Part shown: positions 22,555 to 26,160 of the stretch, piece after piece
How the letters are laid out: each line of letters begins with the position of its first letter
How positions within the stretch are numbered: the stretch's first letter is position 1
DNA from: a phage
Direction: 5' to 3' (one strand)
Sequence record: PZ452581.1
DNA length: 64,000 nt
Program-made: the position numbers and the translations under genes
Notes under the pieces: model-generated
Told to the model about the DNA's origin: nothing
The model's input: the letters and a program-made list of their open reading frames with translations, nothing else
The model's database searches: none

Positions 22555-22737
22555 TTATTTTGCCCAGGGAGCCCAAGGCGGAGGGTCAAGATGGTATGAA
22601 GCTAGTTCTTCTAGAAGAGCATCTGGGGCTTCAATTCCATAATTCTGTAATACTATACGGTATTCTTTCTTATAATCACTAGAATCATTCTGGATATTCG
22701 TAGAATGATTATCTTCTAACATCTCAAATAAATCCAT
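22555..22737 (-). CDS. Hypothetical protein
   Basis: 60-aa ORF. Confidence 0.4.
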   Translation of the reverse strand: MDLFEMLEDNHSTNIQNDSSDYKKEYRIVLQNYGIEAPDALLEELASYHLDPPPWAPWAK

Positions 22738-22745
22738 ACTAATTC

Positions 22746-23216
22746 CTAGCGATAAAAACCAAATTGACGATTAGCTTCAATAATCTTTCTTTCTTCTTCG
22801 GACATTCTCCAGCGTAGTCCAACATCAAAATGAGCCCAGACCATCCTAACAAATGCATTTATATCTTTAATATCTTCAATAATGAATGTTTTACTTTTAG
22901 AAGGTTGACTCGCTAATTTAACTTTATCGTCTTCAAACATGTCAAAAAGACCATATTCATGAGCTCTTTTATAGCCTTTAATAGTTAAAGCTTCAGAAGA
23001 AGAAAATGGTGAATCTGTATTCTGCAAAATATCTTCAGTATGCTTTATAATTAGAATAACATTTTCTGGATATTTTCTTTCTTTTATATCTTTAATTAAA
23101 ATATCTGGATTTTCTGCTAAAGGAATAATTAATGAGCACTTTTTATCAAGTGTATTTACTGATTTACCTTCTTTAGACATAAATTCTATTGAATATAATT
23201 TTGCTACTTCAATCAT
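22746..23216 (-). CDS. Hypothetical protein
   Basis: 156-aa ORF. Confidence 0.5.
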
Positions 23217-23369
23217 GTGATTTCCTTTTGCCTACTAATGGACCGTCAGGAATTTTATTTTCCTGGATATACTTCTCATTTTCTTCCATCATTTTACTGC
23301 CAATTTTAAGAAGCAAATCCAATGCTTCATTTGCTTTAGCCTTTGCCTCTTCTAACGTCATATCTTTGG

Positions 23370-23573
23370 TCATGATTTATCACCATAGATGTCTCTCATC
23401 AATTTAAGCGCTGAGCGTTCTAATTTCTTTTCTTTCTCAGCACTAATCATTGATTTCATCCATTCTTCTGACTCGTTCTGTATTTCTTTATTTGCCTGTT
23501 CAACCCAACCATCATCAATATACATTGAGTTTGGTCTATTGAACCATTCAAGCATTTTCTTCAGAACTTTCAT
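23370..23573 (-). CDS. Hypothetical protein
   Basis: 67-aa ORF. Confidence 0.45.
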
Positions 23574-24045
23574 TTGTTTTACCTAAAACGATAGTATGGA
23601 CACCGTCAAATTCATGAATTTTTAGCAAATTTGGATTTAAATTATTCCATAAAGAGGTAATAAAATATGATAGCGCACTTTCGTCCGTAATTATAAATTT
23701 ATTTCCCTTATCAATTTTCCAGTCATATATTGAATCATATGAATAGAAGGATAACGGTTTATTATTATAGTATGCTTCAGCAACATCAATATAGTTAGAT
23801 TTAGTAAATGCTTGAATTGCCATAAATGGAGAATTTTGTACAGTTTCAATAATTCCGATCTTTTTAAGTTTTATTTCAACATCTTCTGGAACTGGCATTG
23901 AAATAAAATCTTCTACTAGATACATGTCATTGTCATATCTTTTATCAATCATTACTGCTACTGTAATTGGAACATCCTTGACAAACGCCATACTAATACT
24001 ATTGATAGACATTTCAAATAAAATCGCTTCCATAATTTTCCTCAA
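23548..24045 (-). CDS. Hypothetical protein (T4 mrh region)
   Basis: 165-aa ORF; position-based only. Confidence 0.45.
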
Positions 24046-24383
24046 TCACAAGATGTAGATGAACAACTAGAATCACAAGAACTTTCACATGAATCACCCG
24101 TCCACACATGAACAGGAACATTAGTATCATATGAATCAGAACTAGACTGTGTATTCTGCGTATTAGATGATGTAGTAGGTGTTGACCAGCGCCAAGGATT
24201 TTTATAATATTCCTGGGCTTCTTCATAAGTCATAGTAACTGCTTCTACTGTTCCATCTCCCATATAAACATATTCAACTACAGTTAAAGGGAGGTAGTCG
24301 TTTGAAATAGGAACTACACCTTCTCCGGGAGTTGTAGAGAAAAAATCCGTAAAGAAACTTTTAAACCAATTAAAGATAAACAT
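24042..24383 (-). CDS. Hypothetical protein with Ser/Cys-rich C-terminal tail
   Basis: 113 aa ending [19 protein letters not shown]. Confidence 0.5.
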
Positions 24384-24589
24384 TACAAAAAGCCTCTCTT
24401 GAATTCGACTTGCTTTTCGCCATAATCATATCGAATCTCTGCATTAAATTCGACAGAACCATCTGCGTACATCATAAATGAATGCACAACAACTTCTGTA
24501 GACCATGGCTGCAGTTCATATTTCTTCATTACATGCCGTGAAATGATAATATCTAAATCTTCATTTGGTTTAATCCAGCGATTTAACAT
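24383..24589 (-). CDS. Hypothetical protein
   Basis: 68-aa ORF. Confidence 0.45.
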   Translation of the reverse strand: MLNRWIKPNEDLDIIISRHVMKKYELQPWSTEVVVHSFMMYADGSVEFNAEIRYDYGEKQVEFKRGFL

Positions 24590-24654
24590 AGTGCTCTCCT
24601 CTATAAGATAATTCTATTATACCATACTCATTTTGATATGTAAACTGCAAAAAC

Positions 24655-24692
24655 GAAAAAAGGAACCCCGAAGGATTCCTTAAATTTTAACC
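24655..24692 (-). terminator. Hairpin terminator downstream of soc
   Basis: Minus-strand AAGGAAUCC-UUCG-GGGUUCCUU hairpin followed by a T-run. Confidence 0.6.
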
Positions 24693-24960: not shown

Positions 24961-25170
24961 TTAAATTACATGATTATTTATAATAAATTCTCGCGGAACG
25001 TTAAAATATCCGATTTTAGTTAATATAACAACATCACCATTAATAATTACCGGAGAATAATCTTCTGAAGCATTAAATTTCCAATGGGCTCTAATATTAT
25101 ATCCATCAGAACCAAATGCTCGACTAGCCGGTCTCCCGGCTTTTTGCCATGCATAAAAATCAAATTTCAT
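24961..25170 (-). CDS. Hypothetical protein
   Basis: 69-aa ORF between soc and 56, where T4 carries segF. Confidence 0.45.
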   Translation of the reverse strand: MKFDFYAWQKAGRPASRAFGSDGYNIRAHWKFNASEDYSPVIINGDVVILTKIGYFNVPREFIINNHVI

Positions 25171-25370
25171 TTTGAATGCTCTATAATTAATTTTAAGGCT
25201 TCTTCACGCACCAACTTGTCTAATGGTATATGCCCAGTTTTAATTGTGTAAGCTTTGTGGAGCTGATTAGATAAGAGCTCGTATGTGAGCTCTTTGTCAT
25301 AATCTTTAAATAGCTGGTCAATACGTTTCTTGCGGGCTTTCTTAAGCTGGCGTTTATTTAAACGAGCCAT
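25167..25370 (-). CDS. Hypothetical basic protein
   Basis: 67-aa lysine/arginine-rich ORF. Confidence 0.45.
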   Translation of the reverse strand: MARLNKRQLKKARKKRIDQLFKDYDKELTYELLSNQLHKAYTIKTGHIPLDKLVREEALKLIIEHSK

Positions 25371-25888
25371 TAATAGCCTCTGTCTTGACGAGCGAAGTTT
25401 TCAGCATTTTTCAGATAATAAAGTTTAAATATTTCTTCAGCTGACATTCCAAGAGCAATAAATTTATTCATGAAAAAGTGAAATTGGTCAATCAGTTCAA
25501 ATTTAATTTCAAGCTGATCTTCAGGAGATAAGTCTTGAATTTTCTTGGATTGCATTTCAGAATAACGTTTCTTCCAAGGTTTCCATACAGCAGAAGCTTC
25601 TTTTTCACCATTACTCATACCACCAAGAGAAGTATATAGCTCGCGAGTTTCGTCTGCGATATAATCGTCTTGGTTTCGCAGCCAAGCAAGAACTTCTCCT
25701 GCAGTTTCAAGTGAATCAGGATGACGATTTGTTTCTGGTTTATCATTAGCCAAACGAATCTGTAAATGCCGCTGCATGTCAAGCATAACCTGCAATGGGT
25801 CAATACTGTGCATAATATACTCAGCATATGCACGATTTGCTTTATCAACACCTTCGATCAAATGAGCACATTCATTAAAGTGAGCCAT
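25370..25888 (-). CDS. 56: dCTP pyrophosphatase (dCTPase) gp56
   Basis: Track ORF 25370-25981 trimmed to internal Met MAHFNECAHLIEGVDKANRAYAEYIMH matching T4 gp56 N-terminus; MazG-like. Confidence 0.88.
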   Translation of the reverse strand: MAHFNECAHLIEGVDKANRAYAEYIMHSIDPLQVMLDMQRHLQIRLANDKPETNRHPDSLETAGEVLAWLRNQDDYIADETRELYTSLGGMSNGEKEASAVWKPWKKRYSEMQSKKIQDLSPEDQLEIKFELIDQFHFFMNKFIALGMSAEEIFKLYYLKNAENFARQDRGY

Positions 25889-25959
25889 TATTTTTCCTTT
25901 CAATTCATGGGTTAGTAGATTAATTATACAATAAATATATAAAGCAATAAGGAGGACAT

Positions 25960-26160
25960 ATGGTACAAAAATTAATGGCACTTGTTAATGCCATAAAAGG
26001 TAATAAAAAACGTATAGCTTTTACTATTTCTGCTATGGTAGGAATTTTACTCTGGAACTTTATTTTATCACCAATTGCAATTGCGCATGGTGTTAATATT
26101 CCAGTAGTTACTCTTGATACATTCGTAGATCTAGCATTTGCTTTAGTTGGGTTAATTTAA
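25960..26160 (+). CDS. Small membrane protein on the plus strand
   Basis: 66-aa hydrophobic ORF with AAGGAGG SD 6 nt upstream; occupies the gap between 56 and 61. Confidence 0.45.
   Translation: MVQKLMALVNAIKGNKKRIAFTISAMVGILLWNFILSPIAIAHGVNIPVVTLDTFVDLAFALVGLI

Follow-up and report, generated by a model that had tools for sequence, protein, structure and literature searches.

About half of the genes of bacteriophage T4 are without a function, and mrh.1 is among them. Several described systems can be compared with its product. Metallothioneins, phytochelatins and the two-cysteine Cu(I) loop of CueR/MerR present thiols on a flexible, non-basic segment, and peptide precursors of about 100 residues such as McbA of microcin B17 and LanA of the lanthipeptides have a conserved N-terminus followed by a Ser/Cys-rich C-terminus. 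The large subunit of class I ribonucleotide reductase (RNR) has a C-terminal pair of cysteines that receives electrons from thioredoxin or glutaredoxin and hands them on to the active site (PMC4078304, PMC5704485). The present study deals with the mrh.1 gene in a stretch of 64,000 nucleotides from a phage (sequence record PZ452581.1), the whole of which is called the window here. Its product, Mrh.1, resembles each of these systems in part, as it ends in a tail rich in Ser, Asp and Cys. It was found that this tail is the most constrained part of the protein family and that it closes with an invariant Cys...Cys-Asp end, a description which appears to be new.

The open reading frame (ORF) of mrh.1 lies on the minus strand, with the ATG at 24383-24381 and a TGA stop at 24044-24042, and comprises 113 codons and the stop. 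The window comes from a Tequatrovirus (T4-like) genome, of which the 2.5 kb surrounding mrh.1 match 568 phage records, the best matches being phages AV122 and KIT03 with 96% identity. The protein matches Pfam DUF7206 (PF23836) with E = 3.7e-29 and 101.9 bits (cutoff 25.6), residues 3-113 being aligned on profile positions 1-107 of 107, and it matches PHROG 2031 (phrog_2031) with E = 5.9e-33. It is 98% identical to T4 Mrh.1, with equal length, equal tail and equal position between mrh.2 and mrh. In T4, T2, Sf23 and others the tail reads ...GDSCGSSCDS[SG]CSSTSCD, and the sole tail difference from T4 to the window is Gly100 to Glu, a variant common to KIT03. Both parts of the family signature are present in the window protein, the EYVYMGDG hairpin at E37-G44 and the C-terminal S-C-D...S-C-D-COOH at S102-D104 and S111-D113. 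It is certain that the ORF belongs to T4 Mrh.1/DUF7206, and because of this membership the entity is an already catalogued gene. It is listed as gene-T4p027 (UniProt P20706, 'uncharacterized 12.6 kDa protein in mrh-soc intergenic region'), and GenBank M30001 labels this DNA mrh.1. No paper discussing the function of Mrh.1 was found in the searchable literature, nor was any assigned function, solved structure or literature found for DUF7206. Sequence searches of PDB chains, NCBIfam and PADLOC gave nothing for Mrh.1, and mrh.1 was not found in the portions of the text and supplement of the CRISPRi-ART T4 fitness screen that could be consulted. Emp (Gp94) of Mosigvirus AV110, a growth-inhibitory early peptide, was considered and set aside, as it is the product of another gene which adjoins motA.

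A preliminary description of the window had noted a 113-residue product ending in a low-complexity, acidic tail rich in Ser and Cys, with regularly spaced cysteines, and had called this tail unusual for a T4-like early protein. Translation and composition agree exactly with the first statement. The wording 'Ser/Cys-rich acidic' is accurate, for among the final 34 residues there are 12 Ser, 5 Asp, 4 Cys and 1 Glu, with His92 as the sole basic residue. The tail is also as unusual as was thought. Fifteen of the last 18 residues are S, C or D (binomial P about 1e-10), and among 330 ORFs of at least 40 residues only that of Mrh.1 has S, C or D in at least 50% of its last 25 residues. A cluster of four cysteines in 14 residues is not rare per se, about 0.5 being expected in the 16.8k residues of the long ORFs of the window. 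The four cysteines are C99, C103, C107 and C112, with 3, 3 and 4 residues in between. An origin of the tail from a tandem repeat in the DNA was rejected: Tandem Repeats Finder gave nothing at 23990-24200, and the Ser codons mix the TCN and AGY types, mrh.1 itself using TCN together with AGT.

Relatives were collected by a search of 1.84 billion cluster representatives, which returned 11, and by a profile search of 5.8 billion proteins, which returned 126. The named sources of DUF7206 are all T4-like phages of Enterobacteriaceae and relatives. The mrh.1 records that were checked belong to Mosigvirus, Dhakavirus, Kanagawavirus and Winklervirus; Serratia phage PS2, Edwardsiella phage PEi20 and Cronobacter phage VP8 are also among the named sources. 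Distant relatives show about 30-60% identity to the query, the lowest about 25-35%. As an accessory early gene of small size, mrh.1 is confined to the T4-like phages that infect enterobacteria. Column conservation over 44 non-redundant representatives (<80% identity) is restricted to two parts, the hairpin E37-V49 and the tail. In the hairpin Y40, G42, D43 and G44 are present in 100% of these representatives. In the tail S102 is kept in 95%, C103 in 93%, D104 and S105 in 89% each, S108 and S109 in 82% each, S111 in 80%, C112 in 100% and D113 in 95%. Near the N-terminus K8 is kept in 89% and F15 in 91%. The middle of the protein varies in length and sequence, and family proteins measure 90-164 residues.

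The pattern at the C-terminus is best seen in the 114 full-length cluster representatives, of which 112 end in Cys-Asp and two in Cys-Asn. Exactly two cysteines, with 4-10 residues between them, occur within the last 30 residues in 109 of them, and 105 have no cysteine outside this tail pair. The penultimate cysteine is followed by Asp in 100 representatives. Lys, Arg and His are absent from the last 20 residues of all 114, and across the family these residues consist of 45% Ser, 17% Asp, 15% Gly, 10% Cys and 8% Tyr. From the aligned sequences the family signature can be written as S-C-D-(S/G)n-S-C-D-COOH with n from 4 to 10, the invariant core in window numbering being S102-C103-D104-S105 ... 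S111-C112-D113-COOH. C99 and C107 are mainly T4-type (Tequatrovirus) extras, replaced by Ser, Tyr or a gap in most relatives. The regular cysteine spacing seen in the window is thus real there and nearly confined to Tequatrovirus; only C103 and C112 are family-wide, and each of them mostly stands in an S-C-D triplet. The identity of the gene as mrh.1, the restriction of the family-wide cysteines to two of the four and the invariant terminal Cys-Asp had all been missed by the preliminary description.

Two kinds of variant gene were observed among the relatives. Phage vB_EcoM_G2540-3 (locus L016, 747-1241; protein P0003) encodes a mosaic Mrh.1 of 164 residues, and a hit in the BFVD database from Yersinia phage fPS-90 is of the same kind. 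The mosaic consists of a T4-type protein with a 51-residue insertion (YASDDTMEEIIRQPEKAGNVGAGALPLNSKKLKEHLDSRRSESYIDTAPIITVTAVS) directly before the tail, and the four-cysteine tail is kept. The insertion shares homology with the middle segment of the Mosigvirus/Dhakavirus-type protein, and therefore recombination between subfamilies has taken place inside mrh.1. Disrupted copies were seen in an IMG/VR metagenome contig (L008) and in protein P0005. One has a frameshift after codon 22 and a 28-residue product; the other has a frameshift at about codon 60 and is fused to an overlapping alternative frame, giving 141 residues.

Within mrh.1, purifying selection is strongest on the tail. In a sliding window the ratio of nonsynonymous to synonymous polymorphism (pN/pS) is lowest in the tail, at 0.02-0.11; the hairpin has 0.16-0.24, and the rest of the gene, including the linker between them, 0.3-0.6. 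Relatives with an identical tail peptide show many synonymous differences, among them TCN/AGY switches at Ser codons, TGT/TGC and GAT/GAC, and other lineages have TAA stops and different downstream sequence and genes next to an identical tail peptide. Because synonymous codons, stops and downstream genes vary while the peptide is kept, selection on the tail targets the peptide and neither the mrh ribosome-binding site nor another nucleic-acid signal. That the tail is meaningless low complexity, a sequencing or annotation artefact, or merely DNA of the mrh ribosome-binding site can for practical purposes be dismissed. The Shine-Dalgarno GAGG of mrh (24040-24043, read from the sequence) does overlap the mrh.1 stop codon, and the frameshifted entries P0005 and L008 are of the type that an artefact would leave. 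Conservation through the overlapping ribosome-binding site is ruled out by the same peptide before TAA stops and other downstream genes. An artefact or frameshift is ruled out by the 115-nucleotide tail-coding segment, which was found at 90% identity or more in 502 of the 502 phage records carrying mrh.1, nearly all of them full length among the matches listed. Together with the retention of the motif in distant relatives, this settles that the tail is real, the point on which the preliminary description had asked for a comparison with close relatives. The joint claim that the gene is mrh.1 and that its tail is selected and functional is close to certain.

It should be noted here that, in this Ser-rich context, a change from Cys to Ser takes a single base. 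C112 is invariant and C103 nearly so, which argues that the thiol itself matters and that the conservation of the tail cysteines reflects thiol chemistry and not mere low complexity. The suggestion of the preliminary description, that the tail could bind metal or be a modification site, agrees with these observations.

An AlphaFold2 model built from a 115-sequence alignment has a mean predicted local distance difference test (pLDDT) score of 58. It consists of a helix at 3-15, strands at 34-40 and 46-52 (pLDDT 75-86) and a helix at 53-61; pLDDT is below 50 over residues 69-109, and the mean is 46-48 from residue 101 to the C-terminus. A Mosigvirus-type member is predicted to have the same layout, with a helix at 3-9, a disordered tail and two extra low-confidence helices in its longer middle. 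On these predictions Mrh.1 starts with an amphipathic helix, the hairpin and a second, short helix, after which about 45 disordered, Ser-rich residues lead up to the motif at the end; outside the hairpin the confidence of both models is low. The hydrophobic moment of the N-terminal helix is 0.39-0.63, the N-terminal peptide of MreB computed alongside giving a comparable 0.51. No signal peptide or hydrophobic segment of about 18 or more uncharged residues was seen by inspection of the sequence, without a dedicated signal-peptide predictor, as K8 and D13 are present. In other genera the N-terminal stretch is only about 10 residues (MINWLKNLFK), and the predicted helix has neither the length nor the lack of charge needed to span a membrane. 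Foldseek found nothing with E below 1 against the PDB and only family members in BFVD. The homology and structure prediction proposed earlier have thus yielded a family, DUF7206, and a tail predicted as disordered, with no structural homologue.

Judged by these patterns, the tail probably carries out the job of the protein and would be the working end of Mrh.1. Our preferred, still tentative, reading is that it is a thiolate/carboxylate ligand for a metal ion or for the metal or thiol centre of a partner. Two thiols, the adjacent Asp carboxylates and the free C-terminal carboxylate could form a soft ligand on a flexible arm without basic residues. Such a ligand may enter a metal/cysteine centre of a host or phage partner, or it may chelate Zn, Cu(I) or Fe ions, while the N-terminal helix and the hairpin could serve to localise or dock the protein, perhaps at the membrane. 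The number of thiols would have been doubled from two to four in T4-type phages. With the metal-binding peptides the tail has in common that thiols alternate with Ser and Asp on a flexible, non-basic segment, and the T4-type proteins have four cysteines within 14 residues. Mrh.1 proteins differ from metallothionein-like peptides in having mostly two cysteines, no CxC/CxxC clusters and no sequence homology to them; a metallothionein-type cysteine density was not found, the window protein having four cysteines in 113 residues and nearly all representatives only the tail pair. In its order of preference the analysis puts the thiolate ligand first, followed by a docking motif, a redox arm, a modification site and an artefact. 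Taken as a whole, the combination of identity, selected tail and ligand is the best explanation, and we hold it with as much doubt as belief.

Several observations weigh against a ligand role. Two cysteines with a variable 4-10 residues between them correspond to no recognised metal-site motif, being neither CxxC nor CxC, and a tetrahedral site would need oligomerisation or Asp ligands in addition to the two cysteines. The structural models are of low overall confidence (mean pLDDT about 58). The frameshifted and truncated copies (L008, P0005) suggest that mrh.1 is dispensable, or else that these entries carry assembly or sequencing errors. In a proteome time course of T4, Mrh.1 was undetected while Mrh.2 and Mrh were detected (PMC9697503 supplement). 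The non-detection is expected because the only tryptic sites of Mrh.1 are K8, K61 and R65, and trypsin yields peptides of 8, 53, 4 and 48 residues. The gap in the tryptic proteome is probably a blind spot of detection and not an absence of the protein.

The position of the conserved element raises the possibility, doubtful as it is, that the tail is a short C-terminal linear docking motif for a specific pocket on a host or phage protein. The main contact would be made by the free Cys-Asp carboxylate, without metal chemistry. In that case Mrh.1 would be a small inhibitor or adaptor, and its partner could, speculatively, be a membrane-proximal factor in the sigma-32/heat-shock pathway. Terminal linear motifs typically sit, as this conserved element does, at the very end of a disordered region; all 114 full-length representatives close with Asp or Asn; and the amphipathic N-terminal helix could position Mrh.1 at a surface. 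The gene shares its transcript with mrh in T4-type phages and with srh in other phages, which would suit such a partner. However, this linkage is not universal, as Serratia phage PS2 has a ModA/ModB-like gene downstream of mrh.1 in place of mrh or srh. The variable spacing of the two SCD units fits poorly with a rigid pocket, and docking alone leaves unexplained why the cysteines are never replaced by Ser.

The RNR tail offers a further comparison. Both tails have a cysteine pair near the end of a flexible acidic segment, and in Mrh.1 C103 and C112 sit within the last 11 residues on the tail predicted as disordered. By this analogy the tail might be a redox dithiol/disulfide swinging arm or a pseudo-substrate of thioredoxin or glutaredoxin, which we regard as improbable. 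The shared architecture, a cysteine pair within about 12 C-terminal residues on a flexible acidic tail, would favour it, the RNR mechanism is documented in the two papers cited above, and the NrdA end of KIT03 (...AEDCSSCKL) loosely resembles the CDSSC of the window. The RNR pair, however, is a fixed CxxC or Cx4C in a large enzyme, whereas that of Mrh.1 has a spacing of 4-10, a Cys-Asp end and no attached enzyme domain to serve, and the adjacent Asp would raise the pKa of the cysteine. The C-termini of NrdA, compared in five genera and RB43, are constant as (E/D)DC[SA][SA]CKL in Tequatro-, Mosig-, Dhaka-, Winkler- and Kanagawavirus, whereas the number and spacing of the Mrh.1 cysteines vary. 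Mimicry of the phage NrdA redox tail by Mrh.1 was rejected, as the two tails do not co-vary.

The preliminary description had also thought of a modification site. A site of phosphorylation or ADP-ribosylation, or a core of the kind found in ribosomally synthesized and post-translationally modified peptides (RiPPs), with azoles or thioethers and with the N-terminal part as leader, is very improbable. The layout of a leader followed by a Ser/Cys core is indeed like that of microcin B17 or lanthipeptide precursors, and modA and modB, which code for ADP-ribosyltransferases, are found 1.5-2 kb downstream. Mrh.1 differs from RiPP precursors in that neither a modifying enzyme, nor a transporter, nor a leader-cleavage motif occurs nearby, and mrh.1 belongs to an early operon of a lytic phage. 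In a comparison with the LAP/TOMM, lanthipeptide and ranthipeptide classes, no YcaO/McbBCD, LanB/C/M or radical S-adenosylmethionine (SAM) gene was found near mrh.1; the seven flanking ORFs gave Soc, T4_MRH, DUF7422 or no Pfam match, and none of them matched a cyclodehydratase, dehydratase, radical-SAM or kinase family. Mrh.1 itself has no cleavage motif. The gene neighbours of mrh.1 vary between lineages, and no family tail contains Arg, while the Mod enzymes of T4 are arginine-specific.

A bolder version of the ligand role would make Mrh.1 the type of a new 'anchor plus thiol arm' class of small phage effectors, in which a disordered arm would bring an invariant Cys...Cys-Asp chelator into a metal or thiol centre of the host; we consider it unlikely. 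The helix and hairpin would dock at the membrane or at a host complex, and the chelator could act as a metalloenzyme inhibitor or as a metal/sulfur shuttle. Speculatively, it could be aimed at a metalloprotease such as FtsH, and Mrh.1 would then be connected with the heat-shock modulators mrh and srh. FtsH controls sigma-32, and mrh and srh are genetically linked to the sigma-32/heat-shock pathway. The link of Mrh.1 itself to heat-shock control is one of neighbourhood only, and the linkage is not universal.

The present analysis turns a curiosity of one sequence into a defined and testable element, a terminal motif plus a hairpin kept across about 120 protein clusters and several genera. Conservation indicates C103, C112 and D113 as the residues to mutate. 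If it is true that the tail targets a metal or thiol centre of the host, this would be a new mode of phage interference with its host. If the ligand role is untrue, the question of an artefact is still closed, and four regular cysteines have been corrected to two conserved ones. For a specialist on T4 the depth of conservation would be notable and immediately testable, with no mechanism established. The features of the locus are collected in Table 1.

Table 1. Features of the mrh.1 locus, with positions in the window
Feature	Position	Strand	Evidence
mrh.1 coding sequence	24042-24383	-	ORF list and translation; Pfam DUF7206; phrog_2031; identity to T4 Mrh.1
Predicted N-terminal amphipathic helix, residues 3-15	24339-24377	-	AlphaFold2; consensus M-I-x-W-L-K-x-L-F
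Conserved beta-hairpin with GDG turn, residues 37-49	24237-24275	-	AlphaFold2 strands; conservation; pN/pS
Variable Ser/Thr/Asn-rich linker, residues 62-93, predicted disordered	24105-24200	-	pLDDT <50; poorly occupied columns
Ser/Asp/Cys tail, residues 94-113	24045-24104	-	Conservation; pN/pS; codon variation
Cys codons C99, C103, C107, C112	24087-24089, 24075-24077, 24063-24065, 24048-24050	-	
mrh (161 residues), downstream of mrh.1	23548-24033	-	Pfam T4_MRH; phrog_1234
mrh.2 (68 residues), upstream of mrh.1	24383-24589	-	ORF coordinates; phrog_1873
sigma-70 early-type promoter, TTTACA-17 nt-TG-n-TATAAT	24616-24644	-	Promoter scan, 11/12 matches, extended -10 TG
Intrinsic terminator after soc	24660-24681	-	Terminator scan: 9-bp stem, then T-run

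On the minus strand the genes follow in the order primase 61, dCTPase 56, two small ORFs, soc, mrh.2, mrh.1, mrh, srh, modA.x and modB, and the order 56, soc, mrh.2, mrh.1, mrh, srh, modA.x, modB is also annotated in T4, 303Ecol101PP, Sf23 and T2. The mrh.2/mrh.1 pair is kept in T4, in a Mosigvirus-type locus and in PEi20, and the two genes are probably translationally coupled, because the mrh.2 stop overlaps the mrh.1 start (ATGA). An early-type promoter is placed right after the soc terminator, upstream of mrh.2 and mrh.1, and drives mrh.2, mrh.1 and mrh (24644-24616). The terminator marks the boundary between the late transcript of soc and the early unit of mrh.2 and mrh.1, and in phage G2540-3 a terminator is annotated at the same place. 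In T4 transcriptomics the mrh.1 RNA is classed as early (PMC9697503 supplement). This and the near-consensus sigma-70 promoter bear out the earlier label of Mrh.1 as an early protein.

Some minor observations were made on the neighbouring genes. In T4 the dam gene lies between 56 and 61 (PMC9697503 supplement), whereas the window has no dam between dCTPase 56 and primase 61, where a gap of about 270 bp is found (25889-26156). A hydrophobic ORF of 66 residues (MVQKLMALVNAIKGNKKRIAFTISAMVGILLWNF...) lies on the opposite strand at 25960-26160 (+) and is annotated as hypothetical in 303Ecol101PP. Between 56 and soc, at 24961-25370 (-), the window has ORFs of 69 residues (DUF7422) and 67 residues (phrog_5782), where T4 has segF. 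The PHROGs labels of these two ORFs are 'head protein' and 'virion structural protein', yet their context is that of early genes. The dCTPase ORF is called at 25370-25981 (-) with a GTG start and 203 residues, but translation almost certainly begins at an ATG inside it (MAHFNECAHL...), giving about 172 residues as in T4 gp56.

The modA locus of T4 encodes an ADP-ribosyltransferase. In many T4-like genomes modA.2, modA.3 and modA.4 (about 22555-23400) are labelled 'molybdenum ABC transporter, periplasmic molybdenum-binding protein ModA', and in one record srh is labelled 'S-ribosylhomocysteinase'. These labels look like errors of gene-name collision that have spread between records. Mrh (23548-24033 (-)) and ModA.3 (22746-23216 (-)) are paralogues, both matching Pfam T4_MRH. 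Mosigvirus-type loci have no mrh proper beside mrh.1 and keep a ModA.3-like paralogue. Recombinant T4 Mrh is reported to form a megadalton complex (PMC8076793). Srh homologues of other genera (L009, 1840-2034; L015, 1044-1259; srh of the window at 23370-23573 (-)) start with W-[LI]-K/E-x-W-L, and these N-termini (MRITSWLKDWL, ...LPWIEKWL) resemble the M-x-x-W-L-K-x-L-F helix of Mrh.1. The likeness may be due to chance, or it may reflect a targeting peptide shared by early proteins.

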